This document shows, one piece after another, positions 39,912 to 60,365 of a DNA stretch of 64,000 bases. The stretch's first letter is position 1, and every line of letters starts with the position of its first letter. The notes beneath the pieces were generated by a model that did no database searches, was not told the DNA's origin, and worked only from the letters and a program-made list of their open reading frames with translations. Source of the DNA: an uncultured Myxococcales bacterium. Its GTDB lineage: Bacteria > Myxococcota_A > UBA9042 > UBA3505. Made by a program: the position numbers and the translations under genes. Location of the stretch: positions 5,039 to 69,038 of the forward strand of contig CAZQPP010000001.1 in the NCBI GenBank assembly GCA_964594295.1, in the 5' to 3' direction.

Positions 39912-39984
39912 GCGTCATGCACACCCGAGTGGCCCACGAGCGCCGCTGAACCCTGAGGCCACCTCCCGCTGACAACCGACCGCC

Positions 39985-40668: not shown

Positions 40669-40954
40669 CTTCAGCGCCGTCATCGGGCAGCTCCGCGCCA
40701 CGGGGAGGGCGCAGATGCGATTCGAGGGCGGCTCGATGCGCCCGCTGCTCGAGTCGGGGCGGGTATACACCTTCGAGTTTGCCGAGCGCTACGAGGTAGG
40801 GGACATGGTCTTCTGCCGCGTGGACGGCAGGTACATCGACGCCCACCTGGTGCGCGAGGTAGACGCCGAGAAGGGATACTTGATCGGCAACAACCTGGGA
40901 GGGAAGCCGGACGGGTGGACCTGGGAGGTCTTCGGGCGGATCGTGGACGCTTGA
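40649..40954 (+). CDS. Small protein with a LexA/S24-peptidase-like signature (tentative)
   Basis: ORF-track 101 aa, overlapping the RNA ligase gene by 20 bp. EGGSMRPLL resembles the GxSMxP Ser-nucleophile motif of S24/S26 peptidases. A downstream Lys (AEKGYLIGNN) could be the general base. Confidence 0.35.
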   Translation: MSMDRRDFSAVIGQLRATGRAQMRFEGGSMRPLLESGRVYTFEFAERYEVGDMVFCRVDGRYIDAHLVREVDAEKGYLIGNNLGGKPDGWTWEVFGRIVDA

Positions 40955-42189: not shown

Positions 42190-42879
42190 TAGCGCCCCCT
42201 CGAATTGAGGAGGCGGGCGCAGAGGCCTCGCAACAGGCCCCTGCGCCCGCCATCGAGCTCGCGCGGCAGCGGCATGAGCCCCCGCGTCCGAGCGGCGCGA
42301 TGAACTGCGCTGTGCGGGCGTGGGGTTTCGCTGACGTTGCGAGCCCGAATCGGGGAGAGAGACCCGCCTCCCGGTGGGAGCGGCGTGGTGTGCACGTCCC
42401 GTCACCGCGACCGGGCCGTGGGCCCGGTGAGCCGGTGTCGCTGCCTTGGGGAGACCCCTTGGCTGCGTACGGGAGTGAACGAGAGGGCGGAATCGACGTC
42501 GCGGTCAAGGAGGCGGCGGATGCCGGCCAAAGGTGCTTCGTTGGCGGGGCAGGCGTCTCGCGAGCGAGAAGCCATTTCCGCGGGCGCTTCGCTTGTCGCG
42601 AAACGCATGGTTGGTGGTGTGAATGGCACCGGCGCCGCACCTCGACCGCTCCCACCTGAGAGGTCGCCGCGTTGGTGCGGCCCTTCGGCGCTCCTGGTCT
42701 TGACGCCGCGGCCGGGGGCTCGGCCGTGGCGGCGCCAGGACGCCCACGGCTCCCGCCGTTCGCCCTAGGGCCCGGGGGCGGGAGACGCCGCGCTCCGGCA
42801 TCACGCCGGAACACTCCTTTTCGTCGTCGGCAGAAGCCGTCCGCCCGTCCGCGAGGCGCGGTACACGCCGCTGCCGCGT

Positions 42880-42905
42880 GGTGTTTCGCGAGCGAAACAC
42901 CTTTT
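42880..42905 (+). terminator. Terminator-like hairpin: 10-bp perfect stem GGTGTTTCGC/GCGAAACACC followed by TTTT
   Basis: Read directly: ggtgtttcgc-ga-gcgaaacacc then tttt. It lies ~700 bp downstream of the MoxR-like gene, inside a 900-bp non-coding gap. Confidence 0.35.
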
Positions 42906-43080
42906 AGGGCGGGGTCTGCTTCCCCGATTCTTGAGATTCGAGCTTGGAAAGAGCGAGGGCTCCGGCAGCCGTCGGCCTCGAAGACCGCGACCCGACGGCC
43001 GGGCGCCGTGGAGATTCAAGACGCACGACCCCCGCGAAGCTGACACCCCACGCTGCGGCGCGCATGGTCCCGTGGCGCCG

Positions 43081-46000
43081 CTACCTCCCCAGCGAAGCCC
43101 CCACGAGGCGGACGACGCAGCGCCCGAAGGCCGAGACCGCTGAGCTCATGTCGTCGTCGAGGATCTCCACGTGGTGCGGGAAGGTCACGTGGTCGAGGCG
43201 GCGAAGCGCGACCTGCACGCACAAGAAGCCGTGACGGCGGGTGAGCTGGGCGACGAGGTTTCGGAGCGCCTCCACCGTGCACTCGGTGGGAGAGCCGTCG
43301 CTCACCATGATCAGCAGGCGCCGGCTCCGCTTGGAGCTCATGGCCCTCTTCGCCGCCGCGAAGAGGGCCCCCGCGTCGTTGTTGCCGCCGCCGACCTCGA
43401 GTGAGGCCGCCGCGCAGCGTCGCCCGCCTCCAGCCTCGAAGAGGGTCTGGTCGTCGAAGCCGTAGAAGCGGGTATCGATCCCGGGGAGCCCGCGAGTGGC
43501 CGCCGACAGCAACGTGGCGAAGAGCTTCGCCCTCTCGTGGTTCTCGTTGATTGCCATCGAGCCCGAGCAGTCCACGAGCGTGCCGATGTGCAGGTCGTTT
43601 CTCAGCACGCGCTCGGAGGCGCAGAGCATCCTTGGGTCGGAGCGGAGCAGGGCGGCGCGGATGCGCCCGCGGTCGACGCTTCGGCCCTGCACACGCCCGC
43701 CTTCCCGGGTGTATCCGATGCCCATGCGCACGAAGAAGCGACGCATGCGCCTCGCGAGAGGCGCCACGACGCGCTCGTGCTCCGCGTAGAGCCTGGGGTC
43801 GAAGGGCACGACGACCCTCTCGACAAGCTCGGCGAAGTCGGTGTCTTCGCCCAGGTTGATCCCACGCACCACGAGAGACGAGTCCGGCCCGTCCTGCTCG
43901 CTCCGGGAGACCACGGCCACGCCGCCGGCGGGGCGCAGCAGCTCGTCGGCGGCCTCTTGCAGATCCTCCTGCGTCATGCCCTCGCTGGCGGCGTTGAGCT
44001 CGGTCACCTCCACCCTCTCGATCGCGCCGGGACCAAGAGGAGCGAGCAGCGCGGTCTCGTCGCCGAAGATCGCCTTGAGCTCCCGTGCCACTCCGAGGAG
44101 CTGCTCCATCGACGAGCCCCGGAAGCTGCGCCCGAACAGAGTGAGCGCCTGCGCGACGCGCTCGTCCCCGTGGCGGTTGCCGAGCCCCATGCGCAGCGCG
44201 GTCACGAACCTCGCGAAGCTGTTCTCCGATCCCTCCAGCGAGCGCAACACCGAGCCCGAGCGGAGGCGGACGCTGTCTGGCGCCCTGCCGACCTCCAGCG
44301 CAGTGGCGGTGAGCACCTCGAAGCAACGCCATCCCAGGCTGGCGGTGAGGCTCCTCGCATCCACCTCGCGCCGCGAGTGGCGGAATGCGTAGGCCGCGAG
44401 CACCTTGAGGGCGTTCCCGTGCTCCTCGTCGCGGGCCCTCATGTTGCGCTCGAGGTGCTCGTCGGCCACCAGGTTCAGCAGGTCCCCGAGGCCTTCGTCG
44501 AGAGCCTTCGCCCAAACCTCCGCGCTGCGCGGCCCTCCGTGGTAGACGTGGTGGCCGAGCTCGTGGAGGACGAGCGCGCGCACCACCGTTTCGCCGTTGG
44601 GCTCGACGCGGAGCAGGGGCAGTGGGTTGACCTGGATGCAGCGCGATCCCATCCGCGCGTAACCCAGCTCGCCGCCGGCCAGCATCTCGATCTCCATCTG
44701 CGCCCCCGTGAGCAAGCGGGCGTTGCGCTCGGCCTCGAGCCACACGCGGGCCAGCTCCCGGAGCCGAGGGTGCGGCGCTCGAGGGGCCCGCCGCAACGCG
44801 GAGAGCGCCGCTCCCTGCGCGCTCTCGGAGGGGGTGGTGCCGGCGATCGCGGCCAGGAGCTCGGTCCTGACGTCGGCCTCTTCGGGCGAGCCGACCAGCG
44901 CGTCGACGAGCTCGCAGGTGATCTCGTCTCGGCCGGCAGCGAGGACGGCAGCGGTCACGCGCCTGAGAGCCTCCGGCTCGGCCAGGCGGACAATCCCCTC
45001 CCACAAGGAGTCCCAGCCGACCGGGCTTCTGCCCAGGCCGGCGTATGGCAGCAGCACCGGCAAGCCCTCGGCTCGCCCCTTCGAGAGCAGGGCCGCGGCC
45101 GCTTCGACCCGCAGCTCCTCGAGCCGCTCAGTGCCGGTGTGCAGGAAGGCTGCGAGGGCGTCGAGCACGATGTCGGGGCGCCAGCTCACCCTGTCGACGA
45201 GCCACGCGACCGCCCGGCCCCAGGCGCTGTGGTGAGGCGAGACCGCGAGCGCGCACGCCAACCTCTCGGCGGAGGCGCCCAGGTCTTTCAGGCGGCGCCA
45301 GTCCTCGGCGAGGAACCAGGACGTCTCGCTCGGCGCGACCGCGGCCCGCAAGGCGTGCTCCAGGGCCCCGCTGTCGCCGCGCGCCATCAGGGCGAGGGCT
45401 ACGCAAAAGCGCACCTCGGGGAGCCCCGACGTGTGGGCGGCCAGCGCCCGGCAACGATCCAGGGCGGCTCCATCCGGCCAGTCGGGGATGGTGAGCGCGA
45501 TCTCCCGGACGCAGGGCAGAGCGGGCACGCTCTCCAGAGCCGCCGCGACGCTGGCCGCTCCAGGCTCGCCCAGGGCGAGCAGAGAGCGCGCCGCCGCCGT
45601 GGCGACGTCGGCGAAGGCGCTGCGGCAGAGCTTCTCCAGGCGCTTCGCGCTCCGGCTCGTCCTCGCCTCCTCGAGCAGGCTCAGGTCCGACGTGCCGGTC
45701 ACCACCTTGGTGACGGAGGCTTTGCCGAGGCCGTGCGAAGAGACCCACCGCGACAGAGCCACGCGGACGTCCATCGACATCTCGCCGATGAGGCGGAGCA
45801 CGTTGTTCCTGCGGGCGTCGATGGCCTCCACCTCCACCCGGCCGCGGTGGAAGTCGACCAACATCTCGCTTGCGTGGACCCTGAGCGCCTCGCACCTCTG
45901 CTCCATGTTGAGGCCGCGGCTGGGAGGGAGAAGCTCGGCCAGCTCGGATCTACCCTCGTCCAGGTCTCCAAGGGTGAGCACGTCGAAGAGCAGCTCGATG

Positions 46001-48309
46001 GTGCCCGCAGGCGCCAGCTCTGCGAGGTCTCGGTGCTCGCGCCAGCGCCGGTGGCGAACGGTGGCGGAGCAGCCCCGCCAGACGATGGCGCAGAGCCTGT
46101 CGGACTCCAGCCCCAGCGCCCACTTCAGCATCCCGAGGATTCCCCCCTCCCATGAATCGGCTGCCAGCGCGAACAACGAGAGGTTCGCGGACCACCGGTG
46201 CAGCAGGGCGTTCGCGAAAAGAGAGGGCTGCGGAAGCCCGGCCGCGGCTTCCACGACGCAGCGTTCCAGCGTCGCGTCGAAGCTCTCACCGTCGATCTCG
46301 TATCGGCTGAAGAGACGATCGACCTCGTCAGGAGGGTCGTCAGCGAGGATCAAGGCCTTGCAGATCCGGACGTCGCCGACAGGAGCACCCGAGCGTGCGT
46401 CGAGGGCCGCGGTGAGGCCTCGGGAGGGCCTCTCGGGGAGCATCTCCACCACGAAGCCAAGGTCGTGCTCCGGGCAGGCGGCGATCCTGTCGTGCTCTCC
46501 TTGCTTCAGCTCGTGGGGCGGCTGCCCGCGTGCCGGCCGCGGGGAGGTCTCCTTCCGTGGCACCGCCAGCTTCGCCCAGTCGGCGACGACCGGGTCCGGG
46601 TGCCCGAGGAGCTCGCTCATCAGGGCGTGGGCGACGGGAAAAGGGAAGCCGGGCGCGACAGGCTCCATCGACGCCAGGGCGACGATCTCCTCCTTCGAGA
46701 GCCTCTTGAGAGCAGAGAGCCAGCTGGGCTTCCGGTATCGCCGGCCGAGCCAGCCGAGGAGGGCCGGTGCGAGGGAGCTGTGCTCGCGCCCCGGGGCTCC
46801 GAGGACAACCGGCAGGACTTCCCGGAGGGCAAAGCCCTCTCCTTCGAGCCAGGAGCCGACAGCCTCGCTGAGCGCCGCCGCTCGCCTCTCGGAGAATCGG
46901 CCCTCTGTGGAGGCGTGGGCGAGGAGAGCCTTCACGAGGCCCATGCGCTCGCCGGCGGGGCGGAGACGAAGCACCGCGAGCTCCTCGAGACGGTCTAACG
47001 GGAGCGCCGCGGCCAGGACCGTCACGTGAGCCGCCGTCGTCGTCCGCGGCTCCTCGAGCAGCGCCCGGATGATCTCGCTGAAGGCCGCCTCTCCCGGGCC
47101 CCGCTGGGGCAGGGAGCAGAGCGCGTCGAGCCCTGTCGGGCCCGCGTGCAGCGACTCGACAACGCGTTGCTTCCCCCAGGTCCTCAGCAGGCGAACGAGG
47201 CAGGAGCCCGAGAGCAAGCGGGAGATCCCGGCGGCGACCGGCAGGTCGAGGCAGCCGTCCTCCCTGTCCGCGATGCCGCAGCCGATCACCGCGGGGAGAT
47301 CCTGCCATCGCTCGGGTCTGCGCAGATCGACCCCGGCAAGAGTCGCAGCGGCCGCCTTTCGGTCGCCGACGGGGATGCCGGGATGAGCGAGGAGCCCGGG
47401 CAGGATCACGCTGGAGAGCGCGAGGGCGTCGGTGGGCCAGCGGGGCTTGCCGAGGAGCACGGAGGCCACGCTCAGGGCAACGCTCCAAGGGGCGAAGCGA
47501 ACGGCTCGCCTGCTCTCGAGGTCCTCACGCAGGGCCGCGAAGAAACGGCGCGTCAGCGGCGAGTCCATCGCGCCGGCGCCGTCGGGGCCGGGGGGGCAGA
47601 AGAGCCCTACGATCCGGTCGAGGTCGTCCTCCTGAGCGCGTGCCGCCTCGACGGAGCGCTCGATCCCGGCGGGGGTGTCCTCCCCCGAGGGCGCCGCGGT
47701 GGCGCGCCCGCGAAGAGGCGCGAGGAAGTCGGCCAGCCGGACCGACTCGAGCACCTCGACTATGAGGCGCCCCGCGACCTCGCGGTCGAGCTCCCCGGCT
47801 TCGACGCCCTCGAGGAGCAGGCGAACGCTCGCCGGCGAGAGCGGGCCCCACTGGTTGAGGCGCCGCTCCGCCAGGTCGGCGCTCTCGGGGTCAGCGAGGG
47901 CGTGCGCCGCGAGAGAGCTCATCGCCTTGGTAGCTTGCCGCTGCTCCACGGAGAGGACGGCGAGGCGCGCTACCGGGCGTGGGTGAAAGAGGGCATGGCA
48001 CAAGCGCCCCGGCTCCTCGCTGGAGGAGCGCATGAGCGAGTATGCGGCGCTCTCCACAACCGCGTCCTCCCTGTCGTCGAGGGCCCGGACGATCCAGCGG
48101 AATGCGTCCGTCCCCCTGGCGCCGGCAAGGACCTTCACCGCGGCGGCGCGCACCGCCGCGTTCGGATGCTCCAGCGCCGGCTCCAGCACGCCCCAGAACG
48201 GGAGGCGTTGCCTCGGGCCAAGGCGTCCGGCCTCCCGCAGGAGCTCCTCGAGATCGGGATGATCGAGGTTCCCGCCGGCGAGGAGGCCGAAGAGCAGGGT
48301 GTCTCGCAT
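43081..48309 (-). CDS. Large HEAT-repeat protein with a C-terminal HExxH metallopeptidase-like domain and vWA domain (extended DUF2201-like architecture)
   Basis: ORF-track 1742 aa, ATG start. N-terminal HEAT-like repeats (NAAVRAAAVKVLAG...). HExxH in RALVLHELGHHVYH. MIDAS in GTLVDCSGSMA near the C-terminus. Confidence 0.8.
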   Translation of the reverse strand: MRDTLLFGLLAGGNLDHPDLEELLREAGRLGPRQRLPFWGVLEPALEHPNAAVRAAAVKVLAGARGTDAFRWIVRALDDREDAVVESAAYSLMRSSSEEPGRLCHALFHPRPVARLAVLSVEQRQATKAMSSLAAHALADPESADLAERRLNQWGPLSPASVRLLLEGVEAGELDREVAGRLIVEVLESVRLADFLAPLRGRATAAPSGEDTPAGIERSVEAARAQEDDLDRIVGLFCPPGPDGAGAMDSPLTRRFFAALREDLESRRAVRFAPWSVALSVASVLLGKPRWPTDALALSSVILPGLLAHPGIPVGDRKAAAATLAGVDLRRPERWQDLPAVIGCGIADREDGCLDLPVAAGISRLLSGSCLVRLLRTWGKQRVVESLHAGPTGLDALCSLPQRGPGEAAFSEIIRALLEEPRTTTAAHVTVLAAALPLDRLEELAVLRLRPAGERMGLVKALLAHASTEGRFSERRAAALSEAVGSWLEGEGFALREVLPVVLGAPGREHSSLAPALLGWLGRRYRKPSWLSALKRLSKEEIVALASMEPVAPGFPFPVAHALMSELLGHPDPVVADWAKLAVPRKETSPRPARGQPPHELKQGEHDRIAACPEHDLGFVVEMLPERPSRGLTAALDARSGAPVGDVRICKALILADDPPDEVDRLFSRYEIDGESFDATLERCVVEAAAGLPQPSLFANALLHRWSANLSLFALAADSWEGGILGMLKWALGLESDRLCAIVWRGCSATVRHRRWREHRDLAELAPAGTIELLFDVLTLGDLDEGRSELAELLPPSRGLNMEQRCEALRVHASEMLVDFHRGRVEVEAIDARRNNVLRLIGEMSMDVRVALSRWVSSHGLGKASVTKVVTGTSDLSLLEEARTSRSAKRLEKLCRSAFADVATAAARSLLALGEPGAASVAAALESVPALPCVREIALTIPDWPDGAALDRCRALAAHTSGLPEVRFCVALALMARGDSGALEHALRAAVAPSETSWFLAEDWRRLKDLGASAERLACALAVSPHHSAWGRAVAWLVDRVSWRPDIVLDALAAFLHTGTERLEELRVEAAAALLSKGRAEGLPVLLPYAGLGRSPVGWDSLWEGIVRLAEPEALRRVTAAVLAAGRDEITCELVDALVGSPEEADVRTELLAAIAGTTPSESAQGAALSALRRAPRAPHPRLRELARVWLEAERNARLLTGAQMEIEMLAGGELGYARMGSRCIQVNPLPLLRVEPNGETVVRALVLHELGHHVYHGGPRSAEVWAKALDEGLGDLLNLVADEHLERNMRARDEEHGNALKVLAAYAFRHSRREVDARSLTASLGWRCFEVLTATALEVGRAPDSVRLRSGSVLRSLEGSENSFARFVTALRMGLGNRHGDERVAQALTLFGRSFRGSSMEQLLGVARELKAIFGDETALLAPLGPGAIERVEVTELNAASEGMTQEDLQEAADELLRPAGGVAVVSRSEQDGPDSSLVVRGINLGEDTDFAELVERVVVPFDPRLYAEHERVVAPLARRMRRFFVRMGIGYTREGGRVQGRSVDRGRIRAALLRSDPRMLCASERVLRNDLHIGTLVDCSGSMAINENHERAKLFATLLSAATRGLPGIDTRFYGFDDQTLFEAGGGRRCAAASLEVGGGNNDAGALFAAAKRAMSSKRSRRLLIMVSDGSPTECTVEALRNLVAQLTRRHGFLCVQVALRRLDHVTFPHHVEILDDDMSSAVSAFGRCVVRLVGASLGR

Positions 48310-48341
48310 CTGGTGCCCGCACAGGCAGGACGTGAGCGCCT

Positions 48342-50870
48342 GTGGCTAGCAGCCGCGCCGGCCGGTCGCAAGCTGCGACCTCGTCGACGGCGCTGCCGTC
48401 TGGGAGCGGAGAGGCGCAGCCCACGACACAGCTCCGGCAGCTGGACACAAAGTGTCCAAGGCGGGGTGTAGGTTCCTCTCCCAGAGCCGCCGAGGAGACC
48501 CAATTGCACGACTTCGTACACCTGCACGTGCGCTCCCATTGCTCCTACATGGCCAGCAGCGTCAGGGTGCGTGAGCTGGTTCCAAGGGTGGCCGAGCTCG
48601 GCATGCCCGCGGTCGCGCTGACGGACTGCGAATATTTGGCGGGTGCGATCGATCTCTACACTCGCGCTCGGCGAGCAGGCATCCGCCCCATCCTCGGATT
48701 CGCCGCCACCATGGCCTCGTGTGCCGCCGGCGAGGTCGACGGCGATGCTCGCCACGAGATGCTGCTGCTGGCCGCCGGCATCGAGGGCTACCGCAACCTC
48801 TGCCGGCTGGTTCGCGCGGCCGGCGACGCCCGTGCAGCGACGGGGCGGTCCGGGCTCGAGCTTGCAAGCCTGGCGGAGCACTCGGCCGGCCTGGTGCTGC
48901 TGACCGGAGGCCTCCGCGGAGGGCTGGCGCGGCTCCTGATGCGCGGCGAGCGCGACGCCGCCCGGGAGCGGCTATGCCTGCTCCGCGATGCCCTGGGGCC
49001 GGAACGAGTCTTCGTCGAGCTGCGCGGCAACGAGACCCATGAGGAGCGGGAGGCGAACCGCGGTCTCGTCGAGCTCGCGCGGGCGGAGGGTGCGCCGATC
49101 GTCGCCACGGCGGATGTGCGCCACCTGCGCCCGGAGGACAGGGAGGCCTACGAGGTCTTGAGAGCCATCGGCAGGGGAGGGCGGGTGAGCGAGGAGGCGA
49201 GCCCGGAGCAAGAGCCGGCGCGGCTTCACCTGGCCTCGCCCGACGAGATGGCCGCGCGCTTCGGCGAGCTCCCGGAGGCCTTGTCGGCCACGCTGCGCGT
49301 CGCCGAGATCTGCGATGTCGAGATCGACGCGGGCACCGTGCGCATGCCGAAGCTGGAGCGTGGGCTCGGGCAATCCGCCGCGGCCCTCCTCGCCGAGAAG
49401 GTGGCCGCCGGGCTGCGGAGGCGCCTCGGAGACGCCGGTGAGGACACCGGGGTTAAAGGTGTCTCGATCTACGAGGAGCGGGTGCGCCGCGAGCTCACCG
49501 TCATCGAGGAGGTCGGCTTCACGGATTACTTCCTCGTCGTCGCCGACTACGTGCGGTGGGCGAGGGAGGCCGGGGTGCCGGTCGGGCCGGGCCGCGGCTC
49601 CGTCGGTGGGAGCGTGGTCGCCTGGGCGCTTCGAATCACCGAGATCGACCCGATCCGCCACGGGCTGCTCTTCGAGCGCTTCATGAACGCCGAGCGGGCC
49701 AACGCGCCGGTCATCTCCGTGGACCTCTGCCCGGTGCGCAGGCTGGAGGTGGCCGACTACATTTCGAGGAGGCACGGCATCGAGAAGGTCGCCTGGGTCG
49801 GCGAGCACGAGGAGATCCTCGGCGGGGCGCTCGTGGGCGACGTCGCCGACGCCCTCGGGATGAGCGGCGCGCGGATCGAGCGGATCCGCGACCTCGTTCC
49901 GAGCCACCGGTGGTCCTCCGTGCGGTACGCATCGGAGCACGATGAGGAGCTGCGCGACCTTGTGAGCCGGGACGCCGCCTATGCGCGCCTGCTCGCTCTG
50001 GCCGACCAGCTCTGGGGCCTCTACCGCGGCCCCACGGCCCACCCACCGAACCTGGTCATCTCCGACGAGCCCCTCGCGGGCATCGTGCCCGCAACCCGCG
50101 ATGTCCGGGGCCTCCTGACAACGCAGTACGGCAGATACGATGTCGAGGACCTTGGCTTCTTCCCCCTCGAGCTGCTCGGGCTCGAAGTGCTCACGGTCCT
50201 CGACCACGCCGAGAAGCTCGTGCGTCAGGGCCCGGTGCCGCGTTTCTGCCTCGAGTCCATCCCCTTGGACGGCGAGGAGGCCTTCGAGCTCATCTCATCG
50301 GGCGACACAGGCGACATCTTCCAGGTCGGGTCTGCCGGCTTCCGTGAGCTGCTCGCGTGGCTCCAACCGAGCTGCTTCGAAGACCTCTGCGCGGCGGTCG
50401 CCCTGTATCGGCCCGGGGGCCTCGGCTCGGGGATGCTCGCGGACTTCGGCAAGCGCAAGCGCGGCGAGGCAGAGGTGCTCTACCCCCATCCCATCCTCGA
50501 GGGGTGCTTGAAGGAGACCTACGGGGTCATGGTCTACCAGGAGCAGGTCATGCGGGCCGTCGTCGAGGTCGCGGGCTTCACGATGGACGGGGCCGACCTG
50601 CTCAGGCGAGCGCTCGGCACGAAGAAGGCTGACGACGTGGAGAAGATGAGGTGCCTCTTCCTGGAGGGCGCCGCGGAGCGCGGCCTCGGAGCAGGCGAGG
50701 CTGGCGAGATCTTCTCGGCGCTCGAGCACTACGCCGGGTACGGCTTCAACAAGGCCCACTCGGTAGCCTACTGCCTGCTCACCTACCGCTGCGCCTACCT
50801 GAAGGCTCACTTCCCGGATCTCTACTCGGAGGCCGTGGAGCGGTGCGCCAGCGGGCCGTCCTCGGGCTGA
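48342..50870 (+). CDS. DnaE-like DNA polymerase III alpha fragment: PHP domain plus polymerase core, lacking the C-terminal third (beta-clamp-binding, OB, tail). Possible gene remnant.
   Basis: ORF-track 842 aa. The likely true start is TTG 48504, preceded by GAGGAG with a 6-nt spacer. PHP motif FVHLHVRSHCSY. Conserved palm/fingers motif NKAHSVAYCLLTYRCAYLKAHFP lies close to the stop. An unrelated minus-strand gene begins 78 bp downstream. Confidence 0.6.
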   Translation: MASSRAGRSQAATSSTALPSGSGEAQPTTQLRQLDTKCPRRGVGSSPRAAEETQLHDFVHLHVRSHCSYMASSVRVRELVPRVAELGMPAVALTDCEYLAGAIDLYTRARRAGIRPILGFAATMASCAAGEVDGDARHEMLLLAAGIEGYRNLCRLVRAAGDARAATGRSGLELASLAEHSAGLVLLTGGLRGGLARLLMRGERDAARERLCLLRDALGPERVFVELRGNETHEEREANRGLVELARAEGAPIVATADVRHLRPEDREAYEVLRAIGRGGRVSEEASPEQEPARLHLASPDEMAARFGELPEALSATLRVAEICDVEIDAGTVRMPKLERGLGQSAAALLAEKVAAGLRRRLGDAGEDTGVKGVSIYEERVRRELTVIEEVGFTDYFLVVADYVRWAREAGVPVGPGRGSVGGSVVAWALRITEIDPIRHGLLFERFMNAERANAPVISVDLCPVRRLEVADYISRRHGIEKVAWVGEHEEILGGALVGDVADALGMSGARIERIRDLVPSHRWSSVRYASEHDEELRDLVSRDAAYARLLALADQLWGLYRGPTAHPPNLVISDEPLAGIVPATRDVRGLLTTQYGRYDVEDLGFFPLELLGLEVLTVLDHAEKLVRQGPVPRFCLESIPLDGEEAFELISSGDTGDIFQVGSAGFRELLAWLQPSCFEDLCAAVALYRPGGLGSGMLADFGKRKRGEAEVLYPHPILEGCLKETYGVMVYQEQVMRAVVEVAGFTMDGADLLRRALGTKKADDVEKMRCLFLEGAAERGLGAGEAGEIFSALEHYAGYGFNKAHSVAYCLLTYRCAYLKAHFPDLYSEAVERCASGPSSG

Positions 50871-50947
50871 GCATGTAACCGCCCTTCGTGGCTTCGTCCC
50901 GGTTAGGTTGTCGGGGCCTGCGTGAGGAAATCCGCTTGCGCCGCACG

Positions 50948-51358
50948 TCAGTGGAGATCTTCGCCGGCCCGTCTCGCGGCATCGCGCACGACCTGGCGCA
51001 CGCGCTCACGCGTCAGGTTGATCGCGGCGCCGACGTCGGCGAGGGTCTGCCGACCGTGCTCGGCTATGTCCAGAGCGCAGGTGAAGGGGATCTCCCAGGG
51101 CGGGCGGTCTGGGAAGTTGAGCTTGATGGCACGGCTGCCGGGCTTGACGTCCAGGTAGAGGTGGTATCGACAGCCTACGAAGGGGCAAGGTCGCGGGCCG
51201 TCGCGACAATCCTCGCGACTGCGCGGGCGGTGGTGCTCCATCCAGTCCACGAGCTCCTTGCCGGCGGCCACCTCCTCGGGAGAGAGCCTCGGCGACGAGA
51301 TCGTGCGGGGCCTGGCCACGGCGCCGCGTCTTCCTTCGCGCTCCCGTGTCTTGGGCAT
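50948..51358 (-). CDS. Sigma-70 region-4-like HTH DNA-binding protein (putative regulator)
   Basis: ORF-track 136 aa. The C-terminal segment [26 protein letters not shown] matches the region 4.2 HTH pattern (TLEEIG..LGVTRERIRQIE..AL.KL). Divergent from the ATPase gene at 51506. Confidence 0.55.
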
Positions 51359-51505
51359 GACATGGTCCTCCGCATTCGGCTGCGGCGCTCGATAGTAATA
51401 GCCTTCGCCCGAGGGTGGTGGAAAGTTGTCAAGTTTTCTCGAATCGGCTCAACGTGATTCGGCGACAAGGGCTCGACCGGAGCAAGCTCAGAGACGAGGA
51501 AGCAC

Positions 51506-53998
51506 ATGTCGGAGCAGATCGCGACTCTCGCCCTTCAGGGGACGCCGTACACCGCGTTGGCCGGCTTCGCCGTGCGGAAGATCCTCTCGGCGGAGATCTT
51601 CTCCCACCAGGTGGGCTTGGGAGCGGGTTACCCGACGGCGCCCCTGGTCGCGGCGGTCTGTCGAGATCGTTGGACGGACCTCGGAGGTACGCTCTGCTGC
51701 TTGCCGGAACCCGTCGAGGGCCTGCTCGTGCTCGGGGCCGGCGCCGAGTGGGCTCCGTCGTCTCGCGAGCAGGCCTTTTGCGCCTTCCTCGCCGTCGGGC
51801 GGGGTGGCTGCACAGAGGAAGCGCGGAGCCACGCCGCTCGACAGGTGAAGAGCTTGTGGCTGCTCGTGTCGACCACCCTGGACTACCTTCAGCTCGAGAT
51901 GATCGACTCCGTGCAGGCGCTCCGCAACGTCTACGGAGCGGCGGACGCCGGCCGCACCGTGGAGATCCGGCGCCGACTCGAGCGCGTCACCATCGAGCAG
52001 GGCATCCTCGAGCGCAGACCGCTGGGCTTCTCCGGTACGGGCGACGCGCGCGAGCGGGTGCATGAACGAGGTGATGCCCCCGGGTTGGAGCACCTCTTCC
52101 CGTGGGTACCGAGCGACGACCCCTGGGGTCGCCTGGTCGACGCCCTCGAGCGCTCGGCGCCCGCTGCCCTGCTGGTGCACTTCCAGGGTTTGGAGCGCGC
52201 CCCCGAGCGCTGCATGGACCAGGCCCGCGGGGCGGTGTCGCGAGCCTACGACCTCCAGCACGACCCGCGGTGGGGGAAGACGGGAGCGCCCTCCGGCCTC
52301 GATCGCCAGGTGGCGGATCTCTACGACGCGGCGGTTGACCGGCTGGCCCGGATGAACGGCAACGTCCTGGCCATGCGCGTGTTCAGCGCGGGCGACATCG
52401 CCGAGACGCCGGGCCTGCAGGCCGTGGCGGTCCGCGCCATCGACGACGCCTCGGTCGATCCCGACCGGAAGCGGCGCCTGCCCCTGTTCCACGGTGGCGC
52501 CCGCACGGGGGTCGTGGGGTCGGAGGAGGTGCTCGTGCCATTCGCAGAGCCCGATCTCGACATCCTGTTCAGCCCGGAGGAGGCGGGTGGGGTCCTGCGG
52601 ACACCCGCCCCGCCGGCACACGACCTGGGCACGATGCGGGTGCTGCGCTCGCGGACGGCAGCCTGCACGGGCAAATCCGGCGATGACTGCGTCCTCGGAG
52701 TCAACGCCCACCGCGGTATCCGCCAGGAGATCGCGGTGGAGAGCCCCATGCGCTTCCGGCACACCTACGTCGTCGGCCAGACCGGGACCGGGAAATCCAC
52801 TCTGCTGCTGCACATGGTCCTCCACGACATACGGCGTGGACGAGGCGTTGCCGTTCTCGACCCCCACGGCACCCTCATCGAGGACATCCTGAAGCACACG
52901 CCCAAGGAACGCGCGGAGGATGTCGTCATCGTGGACCCGACCGACATCGAGCGGCCGGTCGGCTTCAACGTGCTCCGCATCACGGCCCACGACCCGACTC
53001 GCTACAGGCACGAGCGGGACATCCTCATCGACGATCTCTACTCCTACATCCACCTCACCTACGATCTGATGAAGGTGGGCGGGCCGCGCTTCGAAGACCA
53101 CTTCCGCTCGATGTTGCGTCTTCTCATGGGAGACGAGGCCCCCTCCCCGCCGCTCGTCCCCAACCTGATGATGCTGCGCCCGGCATACAGGAGCCAGGAG
53201 CTTCGTGACCGTCTGCGCAAACGGCTCACGCAGGACGACGCTGTGCTCCAGAGCTTCTTCGAAGAGGCGGAGGGTGTAACCTCGAGCGACGAAAGGCTCG
53301 TCAACCTGGCGCCCTACGTCACCAGCAAGTTCAACCGCTTCCTCGCCGACGCGGCGCTCAGGAACATGACCTGCCAGGACGGCATCCTCGACTTCGGCGA
53401 GATCATAGAGAGCAAGCGCATCTTGCTCTTCAACCTCGGAAAGGGCCGATTTGGAGAGCAGGCCGCAGGGCTCCTCGCTGCTCAGCTGGTCTCCCGGCTG
53501 CGTCTAGCGGCCATGGGACGCAAGATCGACCATCACACCCCTCCCTTCTTCCTCTACGCCGACGAGTTCCAGATGTTCGCCGGCGAGCGCTTCGACGAGC
53601 TCCTCGCGGAGGCTCGCAAGTTCCGCCTCGGCCTCGTCCTCGCGCACCAGTTCGCCGGCCAGCTCCCCGAGAAGACGCTCCACGCCATCTTGGGCAACGT
53701 CGGCACCGTAGTCGCTCTCCGTACCGGTGCCCGCGACGCGGAGATGCTCGCCCCCCTCTTCACCCCCAGCTTCCTCGCGCGAGACCTGTCGAGCCTCCCG
53801 AACTTCGTCGCATACGCCCGCAGCGCCGGCCAGCTCGGCACCGAGCCCTTCAGCCTCGAGCTGGCCCCGCCGCCCGCCAAGGGCGATCCCAAGCTCGCCG
53901 AGGCCGTACGCCAGCTCTCCCGGCTGAAGCACGGCCGGGACCGCTGTATCGTAGAAGCCGAGATCAACGCGACCTACCGCGCGTTCCTCTCGGGATGA
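51506..53998 (+). CDS. FtsK/HerA/TraG-superfamily P-loop ATPase (AAA_10/DUF87-like) with a ~400-aa N-terminal region of unknown function
   Basis: ORF-track 830 aa. AGGAAG lies 3 nt before the ATG. Walker A HTYVVGQTGTGKST. Walker B PFFLYADEFQ. The C-terminal region resembles the TraD/TraG-type coupling-protein tail. Confidence 0.75.
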   Translation: MSEQIATLALQGTPYTALAGFAVRKILSAEIFSHQVGLGAGYPTAPLVAAVCRDRWTDLGGTLCCLPEPVEGLLVLGAGAEWAPSSREQAFCAFLAVGRGGCTEEARSHAARQVKSLWLLVSTTLDYLQLEMIDSVQALRNVYGAADAGRTVEIRRRLERVTIEQGILERRPLGFSGTGDARERVHERGDAPGLEHLFPWVPSDDPWGRLVDALERSAPAALLVHFQGLERAPERCMDQARGAVSRAYDLQHDPRWGKTGAPSGLDRQVADLYDAAVDRLARMNGNVLAMRVFSAGDIAETPGLQAVAVRAIDDASVDPDRKRRLPLFHGGARTGVVGSEEVLVPFAEPDLDILFSPEEAGGVLRTPAPPAHDLGTMRVLRSRTAACTGKSGDDCVLGVNAHRGIRQEIAVESPMRFRHTYVVGQTGTGKSTLLLHMVLHDIRRGRGVAVLDPHGTLIEDILKHTPKERAEDVVIVDPTDIERPVGFNVLRITAHDPTRYRHERDILIDDLYSYIHLTYDLMKVGGPRFEDHFRSMLRLLMGDEAPSPPLVPNLMMLRPAYRSQELRDRLRKRLTQDDAVLQSFFEEAEGVTSSDERLVNLAPYVTSKFNRFLADAALRNMTCQDGILDFGEIIESKRILLFNLGKGRFGEQAAGLLAAQLVSRLRLAAMGRKIDHHTPPFFLYADEFQMFAGERFDELLAEARKFRLGLVLAHQFAGQLPEKTLHAILGNVGTVVALRTGARDAEMLAPLFTPSFLARDLSSLPNFVAYARSAGQLGTEPFSLELAPPPAKGDPKLAEAVRQLSRLKHGRDRCIVEAEINATYRAFLSG

Positions 53999-54076
53999 GG
54001 CGGAGAAGGACGCGCGCGGGAGACGCACAGCTGCTACACAGCACAACAGGATCGGCCACCGGCAAGGAGGTTTGAT

Positions 54077-54418
54077 ATGTGGCTCTTCACCGACTTCGGC
54101 TTCTTCAGCGTGGTCCAGAAGCCCGACACGAGCTGCCTGACCGTCAGGTCCAGGGTCGGGGACGATCTCGACCGGCTGCGGGAGCGCTACCTCCCCGAGC
54201 TCTCCGATACCGTGGTGGGCGGGGGAACCGACTACCCCTTCCGTGCCACGGTGTCCCACGCGGACTTCGCCGCCGGGCTATCGAGGATCGCGTCCGCCCT
54301 CGACTACTCCAACTTCAAGTACCGGGTCGAGGGCACCCTGGGTCGCGAGCGTTCGTCGGTGTACGGGCGAGTGTGGCAGGATCTCCTCGCGCTTGAGACG
54401 CCTGATGAGCGGGAGTGA
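54077..54418 (+). CDS. Hypothetical small protein
   Basis: ORF-track 113 aa. Strong RBS AAGGAGG 7 nt before the ATG. No recognisable motif. Confidence 0.5.
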   Translation: MWLFTDFGFFSVVQKPDTSCLTVRSRVGDDLDRLRERYLPELSDTVVGGGTDYPFRATVSHADFAAGLSRIASALDYSNFKYRVEGTLGRERSSVYGRVWQDLLALETPDERE

Positions 54419-54542
54419 CGCCTCCGGCCTCGCGCCAAGGTGGGCGGCATGTCCGGAGAACGCCCGGCGTGGCATCTTCCGGCCGTAGCACCTGACGCCC
54501 TCGTCGCGGTGCCCCGAACAACCGACACACAGGGAGGCTGGA

Positions 54543-56288
54543 TTGCGGGCCGACAATGACTGCGCCGTGTTGGAGCTCCGGGTCGTGGGCTCCCTCGCGG
54601 GTACGTTCCGCGTGAAGCGCTACCAGCGCGGGTACCGCTGGGGCGAAGAGGAGGTGACGCGCCTGCTCGACGACATCTGGTGCAGCCGTGGGCAGCCCTA
54701 CTGCCTTCAACCCGTCGTGGTCAAGGCCGCCGGCCCCGATGAGTGGGAGCTGGTCGACGGCCAGCAACGCCTGACGACCCTGCTGCTGATCCTGCTGTAC
54801 ATGAAGCGAGCGGAGCTGAAGCGGATCGAGCCGAAGTACAGGATCCGCTACGACACCCGCCCCGAGCTCGCCAGGTACTTCGAGACCTTCGATCCCGACC
54901 TGGCCAAGACGAACATCGACCTGTACCACCTTCACCAGGCCTACTCGTGTATCGCCGGGTGGTTCGAGTCGCCGGACCGCGAGAACGGGGATCCTCAGCT
55001 GGCCGCCGACGACATCTACGGCTGCCTCAGCCGGACGGTGCGCGTGATCTGGTATCGCGTGCCGGAGGCGACCAGAGCCACGACGCTGTTCCGCCGGCTG
55101 AACGTGGGCAAGATCTCCTTGACCAACGCCGAGCTCGTCAAGGCGTTGCTGCTCTCGCGCAGCCGCTCGGAGGTGTCCGGATCGAGCCGCGCCGAGGAGC
55201 GGGCCGCGCAGTGGGACGCCATCGAGCGGGACCTGCAGGACGAAGACCTGTGGGCCTTTGTCAGCGACGGTCACGAGGCCGGCCGGGAGGCGACGCGTAT
55301 CTCCCTGCTGCTCGACACCCTCGCGGGCGGGCTCCGTGGGCGCAAGCGCCCCCGCGTCCACACCTTCGACGTGCTCCGCACCAGGATCGAGGCCGACGCC
55401 GAGGCATTCTGGACCAGCGTGGTAGACCTGTACGCCCGCATCCTCGGGTGGTTCGCCGACCGCAGCGTCTACCACAAGGTGGGTTACCTGGTCGCCACGG
55501 GCGTTGCGTTCGCCGACCTGGTCGGGCTGGCCGAGGGCAAACGCCGAAGCGAATTCGAGGGCGCGCTCGACGCGGCCATTCGTGACCGCCTGAGGTTGAC
55601 CGCCTCACGGGTACACGATCTGAGGTACGGGACGAGCGGGCACGAGGAGAAGCTGCACCGGCTCCTGCTGCTCATGAACGTCGAGAGCGTGCGACGGATG
55701 GAGAACACCTCCGAGCGGTATCCGTTCAGGCTGCACCGTGAGGGCACCGGGCGCGACAAGCCGCGCTGGTCGCTGGAGCACATCCACGCGCAGCACGCGG
55801 AGCAACTGAACAAGGAGGTCGAGAGGCGGAGCTGGCTGCAGGAGCACAAGCGCTCGTTGCAGGATCTGCCGGACTCAGCGGGCGCCGAGAATCGGAGCCT
55901 CCGCCGCCGCATCGACGTGGCGCTCGGCAAGGTTGACGGCGACACCTTCGACAAGCTGTCTGGCGATGTGGCCGCGCACTTCTCGCGCGACTCCGGCGCC
56001 GAGATGCACGCGATCGGCAACTTGGCCCTGCTGGAGAGTGGACAGAACACGGCGCTCTCCAACTCGGTCTTCGAGGTGAAGCGCCGCAAGATCCTCGAGC
56101 TTGACCGTGCCGGTGAGTACATCCCGATTTGCACGCGCCGCGTGTTCTTGAAGTACTACGCGGGTGCCGACGCGCAGCAGGTGCACTTCTGGAGCCGCCG
56201 CGACCGCGAGGCCTACCTGGATGCGATGTTGGGCAAGGAGCGCGGTGTGCTCCGCCCGTACCTCATGCCGGAGGCCGAAGGCGCATGA
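54543..56288 (+). CDS. GmrSD-family type IV restriction enzyme-like protein (DUF262 ParB-like N-terminal domain plus DUF1524 HNH-like C-terminal domain)
   Basis: ORF-track 581 aa. TTG start preceded by GGGAGG with a 5-nt spacer. DUF262 signature LVDGQQRLTTL. DUF1524 signature WSLEHIHAQH...GNLALLESGQNTALSN. Confidence 0.85.
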   Translation: MRADNDCAVLELRVVGSLAGTFRVKRYQRGYRWGEEEVTRLLDDIWCSRGQPYCLQPVVVKAAGPDEWELVDGQQRLTTLLLILLYMKRAELKRIEPKYRIRYDTRPELARYFETFDPDLAKTNIDLYHLHQAYSCIAGWFESPDRENGDPQLAADDIYGCLSRTVRVIWYRVPEATRATTLFRRLNVGKISLTNAELVKALLLSRSRSEVSGSSRAEERAAQWDAIERDLQDEDLWAFVSDGHEAGREATRISLLLDTLAGGLRGRKRPRVHTFDVLRTRIEADAEAFWTSVVDLYARILGWFADRSVYHKVGYLVATGVAFADLVGLAEGKRRSEFEGALDAAIRDRLRLTASRVHDLRYGTSGHEEKLHRLLLLMNVESVRRMENTSERYPFRLHREGTGRDKPRWSLEHIHAQHAEQLNKEVERRSWLQEHKRSLQDLPDSAGAENRSLRRRIDVALGKVDGDTFDKLSGDVAAHFSRDSGAEMHAIGNLALLESGQNTALSNSVFEVKRRKILELDRAGEYIPICTRRVFLKYYAGADAQQVHFWSRRDREAYLDAMLGKERGVLRPYLMPEAEGA

Positions 56289-58534
56289 AGTCCCGCCTGA
56301 CATCCTACTCCGCCTTGTTCGATGAACCGGGCGGCGGTCACCCCGCCGTGGAGGCGGTGGAGATCCCGCTGATCCAGCGTGACTACGCCCAGGGGCGGGA
56401 GGGCAAGAAGGTGGAGCGTATCCGCCGCGACTTCCTGACCGTCCTCCTCGAGGCCGTGGACGGAGGGGAGGCCGTCAACCTGGACTTCGTGTACGGCGAC
56501 GTCGAGGCAGGAGTGCTACGTCCCCTGGACGGGCAGCAGCGCCTGACCACGCTCTTCCTCCTGCACTGGTACCTGGCCTGGCGGATCGACCGCCCGCTGT
56601 CGGAGCTCGGCTGGACGCGTTTCACCTACGCCACCCGGGCCACGGCGCGCACCTTCTGCCAGCGCCTGGTCGCCAACAGGCCCCCGGCCGCGACGCCGAA
56701 TGTCTCCGAGTGGATCACGGACCAGCCCTGGTATCTGTATACCTGGGATCACGACCCGACCGTGAAGGCGATGCTGGTGATGCTGGACGCGATCCACGAG
56801 CGCTTCGGCGCGATCGACCACGCCGCCGCCTGGCACCGCCTGGTGGAGGCTTCGCCCGGGTCCGTCACCTTCCACCTGCTGCCGCTGGAGGGCATGGGGC
56901 TCAACGAGGACCTCTATATCAAGATGAACTCGCGCGGGAAGCCGCTGACCGAGTTCGAGAACTTCAAGGCGCGTTTCGAGGAGCTGCTCGAGGGGAGCTG
57001 TGAAGATCGCGTGGAGGAGGTCGCGCGCAAGATAGACACGACCTGGGCGGACGTGTTGTGGCCGTTTGACGGCGGAGACCACGTGGTCGACGACGAGTTC
57101 ATGCGCTACTTCCACTTCGTCACCGACGTGATCACGTGGGAGAACGGAGAGGACCCGACGAGTGACGTCGAGGCGCAGGCGACCAGGCTGTTCGGTCCCG
57201 AGGCCGACGTGCCCGCGGGGAACCTGGACCGCCTTGTCAGGATGTTCGACACCTGGGTCGGCGTGGACGTGAGGGCGGCCTTCGAGGCCCTGTTTCGCGG
57301 CCCCGACCAGGCGGAGAGCGCGAACGGGCCGCACCGCCCGGTGCTGTTCGAGGCGCCCGCGAACCTGTTCGAGGCCTGCTGTCGTGACTACGGACGCGTC
57401 CGTGGCAAGGCACGCGACTTCAGCTTGAGCTCCACCCTGCTGCTCTACGCGGTGCTCGTCCACCGCCTCGAAGGCACCGCCGACTTCCTGCGCCGCCTCC
57501 GCGTGCTCCGAAACCTGCTCGCTTTCGCGGGTAACGAACTGCGGGCCGACACCATGGCCCAGTTCGTCAGGGACGCGCGCGAGCTCGTCGTCACGGGATC
57601 TCTCGACGACCTGCCGGCCTTCACCCGCGCTCGAGTCGCCGAGGAGCGGGCGAAGCGGGATCTGGTCGGAACCCACCCGAACCTCGAGCCGACCCTGCAC
57701 CGCCTGGAGGACCACCCGCTGCTACAGGGCACGCTCGTCGTTTTCGAGCTCGACCCGGCCAGCCTGAAGCGGCGTGCCGACGCGTTCTTGCGTCTGTACG
57801 ACGGTCGATCTCGTTATCCAGAGGTCACCGGGGCGTTGCTGGCCTGCGGCGACTACTCCAGGCGCCAGCGCAACGAGCGCTACTTCCAGCTGGGCTCACC
57901 CAAGAACGACGGTCCCTGGCGGTTGCTGTTCACCGCCGACCCGCGGGACAAGCAGGCGCGAGCGCGCCGGGCGCTCGGTGCTCTGCTGGACGCCGTCGCC
58001 GCCCCCGACATCGGCGGAGCGTTGACCACGGTGCAACGGAGCTTCGTCGACGAATGCGAGCGCGCGGCCCGCTTCGACTGGCGCTACTACCTCGTCCGCT
58101 ATCCCGCGATGCGCACCGGCGACAACGGCGTCTACGTCGGCTGGGAGGGCAGGCTGCGCTACCAGATCTGTATGCTCCGCGGCGTGAGCGTGGCTGGCTA
58201 CTACCGTGACGCCTACCTGTGGGCGCTGCTCGAAGAGAGCGACGCTTCGGGGGCGGTCGAGGACACGTGGTTCACCGGGTACGAGCACCTGGAGCGCTGG
58301 ATTACGCTGAAGCGAAGCCGCGCCGGGATTCGGTGCGTGGACGAGGGCCTTCGGCTCGACCCGCCTCGTCGGGTCCGCCACCGGCGGGCTTGGGACGAGG
58401 TCTGCACCAGGCACGGTGTGGTCGACGGTCTGCTGCCCGTCCCCCAGACCGCGGGCGATCCGCCCGTCGACACGGTCGATCGCGTGTCGCTGGGAGCGGC
58501 ATTGCTCCGAGACCTCGTCCGGGCCGGGTGCTGA
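56285..58534 (+). CDS. DUF262 (ParB-like NTPase/nuclease) domain protein, second subunit of the GmrSD-like pair
   Basis: ATG 56285 (MKSRLTSYSALFDE...) overlaps the upstream stop (ATGA). The ORF track shows an over-extended 801-aa version starting at 56129. DUF262 signature PLDGQQRLTTLFLLH. ~749 aa. Confidence 0.8.
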   Translation: MKSRLTSYSALFDEPGGGHPAVEAVEIPLIQRDYAQGREGKKVERIRRDFLTVLLEAVDGGEAVNLDFVYGDVEAGVLRPLDGQQRLTTLFLLHWYLAWRIDRPLSELGWTRFTYATRATARTFCQRLVANRPPAATPNVSEWITDQPWYLYTWDHDPTVKAMLVMLDAIHERFGAIDHAAAWHRLVEASPGSVTFHLLPLEGMGLNEDLYIKMNSRGKPLTEFENFKARFEELLEGSCEDRVEEVARKIDTTWADVLWPFDGGDHVVDDEFMRYFHFVTDVITWENGEDPTSDVEAQATRLFGPEADVPAGNLDRLVRMFDTWVGVDVRAAFEALFRGPDQAESANGPHRPVLFEAPANLFEACCRDYGRVRGKARDFSLSSTLLLYAVLVHRLEGTADFLRRLRVLRNLLAFAGNELRADTMAQFVRDARELVVTGSLDDLPAFTRARVAEERAKRDLVGTHPNLEPTLHRLEDHPLLQGTLVVFELDPASLKRRADAFLRLYDGRSRYPEVTGALLACGDYSRRQRNERYFQLGSPKNDGPWRLLFTADPRDKQARARRALGALLDAVAAPDIGGALTTVQRSFVDECERAARFDWRYYLVRYPAMRTGDNGVYVGWEGRLRYQICMLRGVSVAGYYRDAYLWALLEESDASGAVEDTWFTGYEHLERWITLKRSRAGIRCVDEGLRLDPPRRVRHRRAWDEVCTRHGVVDGLLPVPQTAGDPPVDTVDRVSLGAALLRDLVRAGC

Positions 58535-59477: not shown

Positions 59478-59605
59478 GCCGTGCGGCTGAGGGTGCGGGC
59501 GAGGGCAGCGGTGAAGGCTCCGCTCTCCGGGAGCGTGTTAGGGTGCGAGGAGGCCCAAAGCCGCCACCAAGCCGGCGCGCGACTGTCGATTCTCTCCGGA
59601 GGCCC

Positions 59606-60340: not shown

Positions 60341-60365
60341 GCCTCTTCGAGGTGTTGGCATCGCC

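Follow-up and report, generated by a model that had tools for sequence, protein, structure and literature searches.

A short and probably non-catalytic DnaE1 paralogue in a conflict-system island of an uncultured Myxococcales bacterium

The stretch of DNA analysed here (64 kb of contig CAZQPP010000001.1, assembly GCA_964594295.1, from an uncultured Myxococcales bacterium; "the window") is dense in conflict-system genes, and among them lies a gene for a DnaE-like protein that stops well short of the normal DnaE end. We call this protein WIN, and use P- and L-numbers for the database proteins and contigs with which it was compared. On balance we favour the reading that WIN is a short paralogue of the replicative polymerase DnaE1 that has lost catalysis and is maintained by selection within a conflict-system island. 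The evidence comes from the replacement of both active sites in a protein that keeps the fold of its relatives, from the pattern of its substitutions, and from an end point that is shared with other, separately derived short DnaE-like proteins.

Results

The gene, its start codon and the predicted fold

The longest open reading frame (ORF) at the locus runs from 48342 to 50870 on the plus strand (842 codons), contains the motif FVHLHVRSH and has the C-terminal end ...KAHSVAYCLLTYRCAYLKAHFPDLYSEAVERCASGPSSG*. Its GTG at 48342 is merely the start of the longest ORF, and the first 54 codons match no homologue. A Shine-Dalgarno sequence, GAGGAG (48493–48498), lies 5 nt ahead of a TTG at 48504, and initiation at this codon gives the N-terminus MHDFVHLH..., as in DnaE homologues. 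Because the 54 leading codons are without homology and the TTG is preceded by a Shine-Dalgarno sequence, the true start is likely to be TTG 48504, and we take WIN to be a protein of 788 aa. With its stop codon the gene then occupies 48504–50870 (plus strand), as delimited by the ORF, Pfam, the Shine-Dalgarno sequence, the alignment with 2HNH, a structure of Pol III alpha from E. coli, and an AlphaFold model. The 5' portion of the longest ORF, 48342–48503, is probably not translated. The intergenic region 48310–48503, which separates WIN from a divergent gene for a 1742-aa vWA/HEAT protein, holds the Shine-Dalgarno sequence, and no sigma-70 consensus was found in it.

Pfam recognises in WIN a PHP domain (PF02811, E = 4.9e-28), the DNA_pol3_alpha region (PF07733, E = 1.6e-60) and, over its full length, the DNA_pol3_finger domain (PF17657, E = 4.9e-51), while HHH_6, i.e., (HhH)2 (PF14579), the OB fold and the C-terminal domain (CTD) are all unmatched. 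On the plus strand the degenerate PHP domain lies at 48519–49022 (from Pfam and the alignment columns), the palm/thumb region PF07733 at 49389–50180 and the complete finger domain at 50190–50684. When WIN was compared with the PDB by phmmer, its residues 4–778 aligned to residues 6–786 of the 1160 residues of E. coli Pol III alpha (2HNH, E = 1e-151). The initial annotation of this locus, made from the letters alone, had described a PHP domain and a polymerase core followed by a stop, and both Pfam and the 2HNH alignment bear this out. An AlphaFold model with 27 homologues in the input has a pLDDT of 88 and a pTM of 0.83, and its TM scores against the Pol III alpha structures 2HNH, 2HPI and 5FKU are 0.86–0.92. 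The comparison shows that WIN retains the core fold of Pol III alpha.

The protein ends approximately 375–415 residues before the normal DnaE end, close to the 300–400 C-terminal residues that had been reported as absent; its nearest relatives are 1161–1188 aa long. Homology ceases at about nt 50837. The last homologous helices (GYGFNKAHSVAYCLLTYRCAYLKAHFPDLYSEAV; 50736–50837, plus strand) carry C763 instead of a near-invariant T, as in other short forms, and are followed by ten non-homologous codons (ERCASGPSSG) and a TGA stop (50838–50870, plus strand). In the model the last helices span residues 750–769 and 771–782, and the chain stops just past the complete helix 771–782. The search for the missing 3' portion that the initial annotation had proposed came out empty: tblastn with the C-terminal 415–445 aa of three relatives gave no match elsewhere in the 64-kb window.

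Loss of both active sites

Aligned to 2HNH, the former catalytic motif PDFDVDF now reads PVISVDL (49707–49727, plus strand; D401V and D403S), and the former KFD motif reads PLE (50163–50171, plus strand; K553P and D555E), where all residue numbers are those of the E. coli protein. From E. coli mutational work we take D401, D403 and D555 to be the catalytic carboxylates of Pol III alpha. The changes extend beyond these residues: at columns that are near-invariant (at least 97% in 114 full-length DnaE proteins) WIN is altered at 22 of approximately 126, compared with a mean of 0.9 and a maximum of 8 for other DnaE proteins. The PHP domain has nine metal ligands, H H D H E H C D H (PMC3666897, table 1). 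Two of the nine are kept in WIN (H8 and D204), and the replacements include H12R, D19A, H44C, E69A and H203R in E. coli numbering; P0002, the nearest relative, keeps seven of the nine.

The alignment thus shows a protein that would be incapable of canonical nucleotidyl transfer and of canonical PHP-type hydrolysis. WIN is also without the (HhH)2 domain, the internal clamp motif, the OB fold and the tau-binding parts, and because these elements, which tether the polymerase to the clamp, to DNA and to tau, are missing, it is predicted to have no place in the replisome.

Relatives and phylogeny

The best matches of WIN are six full-length DnaE proteins, P0002–P0007 (1161–1188 aa), with 46–52% identity (52% for P0002), one of which comes from a Myxococcales metagenome-assembled genome. 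Ordinary DnaE1 is about 40% identical to WIN, while identity within the P0002–P0007 clade is 70–74%. No nearer relative than these six was found by phmmer among 1.84 billion cluster representatives, and neither the 842-aa ORF nor P0002 proved to be on record when looked up by exact match. In a neighbour-joining tree with 100 bootstraps, WIN is sister to P0002–P0007 with 99% support, and the clade that excludes it has 100%. Judged by these sequences, WIN is an old long-branch offshoot of the Myxococcota-type DnaE1 lineage.

A further full-length protein, P0138, falls in the 90%-identity cluster of P0002. Its contig (70.5% G+C) comes from JGI 3300009374, the same metagenome as contig L083. Because this metagenome holds the window's strain, represented by L083, the host very probably has a normal DnaE1 of its own, with WIN as an extra copy.

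A recurrent short architecture

The lengths of the best 150 matches from the phmmer search reveal nine more proteins, of 766–804 aa, that stop 10–30 aligned residues past the KAHYP motif; for WIN this distance is 17. If partial proteins ended at random, such a clustering of end points would have P of about 2e-7. A scan of metagenome contigs with a degenerate pattern yielded eight further short DnaE genes. Taken together the short forms comprise at least nine representatives and eight metagenome loci, all of which end 4–23 residues after the "YLKAHYPxEF" helix. Their members are P0154/P0290/P0291, a low-GC family (L186, L155, L146 and others), and P0155, P0178, P0189, P0223, P0251, P0262, P0267 and P0276. 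Genuine stop codons were found at all 12 ends for which the DNA was read (four representatives and the eight metagenome loci). At the four short-form loci that were looked up there is no remnant of a DnaE C-terminus; what lies downstream is an MBL/beta-CASP nuclease, an HD protein, an LRR protein and, in one case, the end of the contig.

Two groups are conserved across species at constant length. The first is GC-rich and consists of P0154 and its orthologues P0290 (781 aa, 69% identity) and P0291 (791 aa, 64%), on contigs of up to 95 kb; P0154 has just 53% identity to its nearest full-length relatives, a pattern that equals that of WIN and P0002. The second is the low-GC family with the signature HAVCY[ST]W...YQM, to which seven of the eight genes from the pattern scan belong, with 57–96% identity and dN/dS of 0.13–0.22. 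For WIN itself only near-identical contigs are known. The initial annotation had reasoned that the same short form in related genomes would point to a bona fide family; this holds by analogy, through the other short families, and does not hold for the exact lineage of WIN, which is seen only in contigs of the same species.

The tree does not group the short forms together. Specifically, monophyly of all short forms received 0% bootstrap support, P0155 pairs with the full-length P0159 (100%), and P0154 and P0276 go with the full-length P0141 (99%), which shows that the same truncated architecture arose several times from DnaE1 genes. The short forms do share some substitutions. They are changed at 5–15 of 93 near-invariant residues, where long forms have a median of 1, and at T763 six of nine short forms have M, C or A instead, compared with 9 of 163 long ones (Fisher P = 1e-5). 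The near-invariant A754 is V754 in WIN, a hydrophobic swap as in short forms. Because both the end point and the adaptive-looking change of T763 are common to short forms, we argue that WIN has long been in its truncated state. Where WIN differs is in its active site: the catalytic triad (PDxDxD and KFDF) is retained in nearly all other short forms, P0223 is without D403, and WIN alone lacks all three carboxylates.

The short DnaE genes stand alone, in neighbourhoods that are variable and often conflict-like. On the low-GC metagenome contig L157 (7638–13044, minus strand) the short DnaE gene has bpMoxR (E = 3e-53) 27 nt behind it and then a vWA gene that overlaps, in an operon-like arrangement; this short DnaE has one in-frame stop, at a position where its relative L186 has Gln. 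At four other loci (L146, 1983–8475; L152, 4932–11428; L090, 3340–6947; L093, 814–4003) the neighbours of the short DnaE gene are a DnaB_C-like ATPase, a nuclease of the MBL/RMMBL (beta-CASP) type and a calcineurin-like phosphoesterase. This recurring neighbourhood may be a replication/repair module carried by a mobile element, or else it may act in defence.

Shortening of the DnaE C-terminus in phages comes in several grades: the IMG/VR contigs L097, L108, L095, L101, L104 and L105 fit the short-form signature, but have tails of 123–133 aa or 262–291 aa past KAH. A phage origin of WIN was considered and rejected, as the phage DnaE-like genes that were inspected are full length (about 1160 aa) and the viral contigs that match the signature all have tails of 123–514 aa. 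A plasmid origin was likewise rejected, the plasmid matches being annotated as ordinary dnaE.

Selection or decay

The gene has 788 open codons without a stop or frameshift, and two gap events relative to P0002. Its G+C content at the three codon positions (GC1/2/3 = 0.74/0.48/0.89) is like that of the adjoining genes. The 387 mismatches between WIN and P0002 have a mean BLOSUM62 score of −0.35, compared with −1.29 ± 0.07 after permutation, which is in the same range as for functional DnaE pairs at equal identity. This shows that WIN evolved under constraint on its fold. Among the features by which a pseudogene is recognised, WIN shows one, in that residues on which the ancestral function depends are gone, while frameshifts, stops, a lost codon-position bias and random replacement are absent. 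The initial annotation had offered a naturally short PHP-polymerase as one of two explanations. The short form stands, given the shared end point and the marks of prolonged selection, but the polymerase does not, given that the catalytic carboxylates, K553 and seven of the nine PHP ligands are replaced.

Part of the locus is present in independent assemblies. Contigs L001 and L002, from two ENA metagenomes, match 49213–57349 and 49213–53496 of the window with 99.95–100% identity, and L083 matches 39722–48495 with 99.99% identity and breaks 9 nt ahead of the start codon. Because the two independent assemblies reproduce them, both the stop codon and the point where the downstream defence block adjoins are real. 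L001 and L002 switch to unrelated sequence at 49212/49213, a position within the linker of PHP and palm (residue ~237). Both begin with an identical 122-nt sequence (1–122 in each contig) that is foreign to the window, and whose opposite strand gives a plausible ORF start (VKPRRLYLYEYYLFPQFLRFNVFPGWAPHRTAELLRRMKQIGLRGA). This foreign head is absent from the window, from the JGI metagenome contigs and from IMG/VR, and the junction may represent a rearranged or insertion-bearing allele in other populations. The frame and the colinear DnaE homology cross both break points, and this speaks against a chimeric window.

The second explanation in the initial annotation was that the gene was truncated when a defence block was inserted downstream of it. 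The genes there are as it had described them, a minus-strand HTH gene close downstream and then a HerA-like ATPase and a GmrSD pair. The HTH gene (50948–51358) is convergent with the short DnaE gene and ends 77 nt past its stop, across a spacer (50871–50947) that is without DnaE remnant, terminator or repeat. Pfam and PADLOC identify a HerA/mad8-like P-loop protein (51506–53998), GmrSD (54543–56288) and a GmrSD_N protein (56129–58534), and a 113-aa ORF also lies within the block 50948–58534. The block has a G+C content of 0.68 and GC3 of 0.86–0.90, in a window of approximately 69% G+C, and its GC3 and tetranucleotide make-up are as in the flanks, so that no break in composition is seen. A search for flanking direct repeats, which had been suggested as a check, and for terminators and promoters gave nothing above chance. 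There is no convincing tRNA; the sole ARAGORN call (tRNA-Ser, 5606–5675) sits inside a long ORF 45 kb away and is probably false. No orthologous locus without the HerA/GmrSD block was found. Nothing supports a gene cut by the insertion of this block, because there is no 3' remnant, repeat, tRNA or break in composition, and because a random cut would seldom hit the 30-residue window that the short forms share.

The main rival to a maintained protein is a decaying relic, in which the 3' third of a duplicated dnaE was removed, either through a deletion or through the HerA/GmrSD insertion, the active sites were lost next, and the gene is now drifting to loss in a decay that is either recent or slow. 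Such a relic would account for the loss of all catalytic carboxylates and most PHP ligands, for the want of cross-species orthologues of the WIN lineage and for a possibly disrupted allele in the two other metagenomes; the in-frame stop in the short DnaE of L157 and the position of the WIN stop, just 77 nt from the end of the defence cassette, would also fit. However, the replacements, gaps and codon-position G+C of WIN are indistinguishable from those of functional DnaE at equal divergence, and its branch predates the radiation of a clade of 70–74% identity, yet all 788 codons are still open. The end point is moreover that of the conserved short families, the short-form-specific T763C is present, and no remnant, repeat or compositional break marks a deletion or insertion. 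We therefore consider decay unlikely, though still to be taken seriously.

The island and its MoxR/vWA genes

The divergent neighbour of the short DnaE gene (43081–48309, minus strand) encodes a giant protein of 1742 aa with HEAT, HExxH-zincin-like and vWA regions. Its partner is a MoxR-type AAA+ ATPase (41032–42189, plus strand), which is convergent with it here, and between the two lie approximately 890 bp (42190–43080) without a convincing gene. The order of this region is an RNA ligase (39985–40668), a 99-aa ORF, MoxR and the vWA giant. Homologues of the giant in Sandaracinus amylolyticus, in Kofleriaceae and on a 1.4-Mb contig pair with a co-directional MoxR. The vWA giant and the short DnaE were considered as a fixed system and this was rejected, since the three homologous loci have MoxR and no DnaE-like gene.

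Among the other short forms, that of L089 has a divergent MoxR gene 259 bp away and that of L157 the co-directional bpMoxR at 27 nt. A neighbour matching the MoxR hidden Markov model is found at 3 of 12 short-form loci compared with 1 of approximately 190 long-DnaE loci (P = 6e-4, or 0.008 without the window), but the numbers are small and the partners mutually unrelated. The partners of MoxR in L089 and L157 were also considered as relatives of the window's vWA-like protein and were rejected for lack of similarity. No PADLOC model matches WIN. No mention of DnaE together with MoxR and vWA was found in the literature searched; the paper on MoxR-vWA systems (Kaur et al., 2020; PMC7159879) and other papers on conflict systems mention neither DnaE nor PHP.

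The remainder of the window has a similar character. It holds an Hsp70-like gene (1156–3405) and a GrpE-like gene (3317–3853), followed within 4151–11475 by proteins of 1301 and 1141 aa without a Pfam match. The region 1156–21150 also includes a weak kinase-like protein, a GDSL lipase, a third vWA protein of the CobT_C type (16313–18229) and an AAA_5 protein of 990 aa (18178–21150). A DUF2201/vWA-like protein (23898–25379) adjoins a MoxR-type AAA+ gene (25303–26805), and next to these, within 23898–31854, lies a giant of 1682 aa that combines tubulin-like (Tubulin_2), Macro and Ser/Thr kinase domains. At 31947–39911 are tandem giants, TIR-NACHT(NPHP3_N)-WD40 (1379 aa) and kinase-WD40 (1274 aa); giant sensors of these kinds are typical of conflict systems in multicellular bacteria. 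Beyond the GmrSD pair there are two ORFs without Pfam matches (58545–60361), an ARPP-1 family protein (60366–61358; E = 4e-80) and a divergent M48 peptidase-TerB fusion (61477–62790). One of the two ORFs upstream of ARPP-1 (59471–60361) has an odd GC1 of 0.83 and GC3 of 0.71, and its frame or coordinates may be wrong.

Discussion

Comparison with known C-family proteins

WIN shares the colinear PHP, palm, thumb and fingers with DnaE1/Pol III alpha (E. coli 2HNH and 5FKU, T. aquaticus 2HPI) and groups with DnaE1, but its chain ends ahead of the (HhH)2/clamp-binding, OB and tau-binding domains, and both its catalytic and its PHP sites are lost. Because the catalytic triad, (HhH)2 and the OB/CTD are all missing, it is a homologue or derivative of DnaE1 and not a Pol III alpha subunit. 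It has the architecture and end point of the other short DnaE proteins, but belongs to a separate lineage as the sister of P0002–P0007.

A survey of about 2000 genomes found the PHP-Pol3-(HhH)2 arrangement to be nearly universal, with an intact active site needed for inclusion (PMC3919608), and a second survey of the C family dropped truncated sequences before the phylogenetic analysis (PMC12926913). Variants without the CTD or OB fold have been described (PMC3919608; PMC12926913), but neither of the two papers describes a PHP-Pol3-only form or a catalytically dead homologue of the C family. DnaE2 (ImuC) and the shortened DnaE3 lack the CTD and sometimes the OB fold (PMC3919608), yet they retain (HhH)2 and the active site, and WIN groups with DnaE1 instead of DnaE2. 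The nearest conceptual precedent is ImuB, a polymerase homologue that is retained as a non-catalytic subunit (PMC12926913). The likeness is limited, since ImuB is a Y-family protein that keeps a clamp-binding motif and has conserved partners, whereas WIN belongs to the C family; no ImuA-, ImuB- or DnaE2-like neighbours (RecA-like or Y-family domains) were found among the Pfam-scanned genes around it in the window.

A non-catalytic binding module

If WIN is indeed maintained by selection, it would have arisen by an old duplication of the DnaE1 of the host lineage or by transfer from a close relative. It would keep the PHP-palm-thumb-finger core as a folded module, ending past the helix that precedes the (HhH)2/clamp-binding domain, and would act as a binding module rather than as an enzyme. 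The ligand could be DNA, bound within the cleft of palm, thumb and fingers, or else some protein able to recognise the alpha core. Candidates for such a protein are the proofreading subunit, which in E. coli binds the PHP domain, or a phage factor aimed at the replicase. Within the island WIN might then serve as a sensor, a decoy or an adaptor, perhaps together with the divergent MoxR/vWA pair.

A more far-reaching proposal is that short PHP-Pol3-only paralogues form a recurrent and hitherto overlooked accessory class of conflict or defence systems. Some of them would be enzymes, clamp-independent polymerases or nucleases, that work with MoxR-vWA or with DnaB_C/beta-CASP genes, while WIN would be the first dead C-family polymerase, a decoy or sensor that imitates the core of the host replicase and so detects phage factors that bind Pol III alpha. 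We regard this as speculative and, as a whole, distinctly improbable.

Several points weigh against a maintained, non-catalytic paralogue. Orthologues of WIN were not found outside near-identical contigs of the same species, so that conservation of the dead form across species is not seen. Since the catalytic triad is intact in the majority of the other short forms, WIN may belong to the short class as a protein that is being lost. The breaks at codon ~237 and 9 nt before the start codon suggest that the gene is dispensable or disrupted in some populations, and the PHP portion between them (48496–49212) is without independent contig support. The link to MoxR/vWA genes is weak here: the window has at least three MoxR/vWA pairs, and the homologues of the giant have no DnaE neighbour. 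Finally, the binding, sensor or decoy role is one that we only infer.

Other explanations

An unusual but active enzyme, a clamp-independent polymerase or PHP nuclease that would be the effector in defence or repair, is what the wider set of short forms might lead one to expect. Most of them keep PDxDxD and KFDF, they adjoin nucleases, DnaB_C-like ATPases or MoxR/vWA genes, and the fold of WIN is predicted to be intact. In WIN itself, however, the substitutions D401V, D403S, D555E and K553P and a PHP site that is down to two of nine ligands make activity very unlikely.

The locus could also be an assembly artefact, either a PHP fragment joined to an unrelated 3' fragment or a stop codon due to a sequencing error. 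What might suggest this is that no other contig covers 48496–49212, and that three assemblies break at 48495 or 49213. On the other hand, frame and colinear DnaE homology are continuous over both break points, and two independent assemblies have the 3' end, with its stop, and the genes downstream at 99.95–100% identity, so we give this explanation very little weight.

Least credible of all is one half of a split replicase, with (HhH)2-OB-CTD encoded elsewhere and joined non-covalently or through a split intein: split DnaE does exist in cyanobacteria, where DnaE-N has a similar size and ends near FNKSH, and the DNA searched here was the 64-kb window, but WIN has no Hint/intein match in Pfam and runs approximately 33 residues past the split site (which we take to be AEY/CFNKSH, followed by an intein half), no C-terminal part was found in the 64 kb or beside four other short forms, the active sites are dead, and the same metagenome contains a DnaE1 of full length.

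Implications

C-family polymerases are usually regarded as obligate enzymes with a near-universal PHP-Pol3-(HhH)2 core, and WIN departs from this picture on both counts. The locus has also drawn attention to other DnaE proteins that are naturally short, with a common end point, multiple origins and, in at least two families, purifying selection. For annotation, such genes should be called neither "DNA polymerase III subunit alpha" nor a second replicase. Should the dead form have a function, the C family would have its counterpart of the ImuB-like pseudo-polymerases, and the replicase core would seem to be used in conflict islands for something other than replication.

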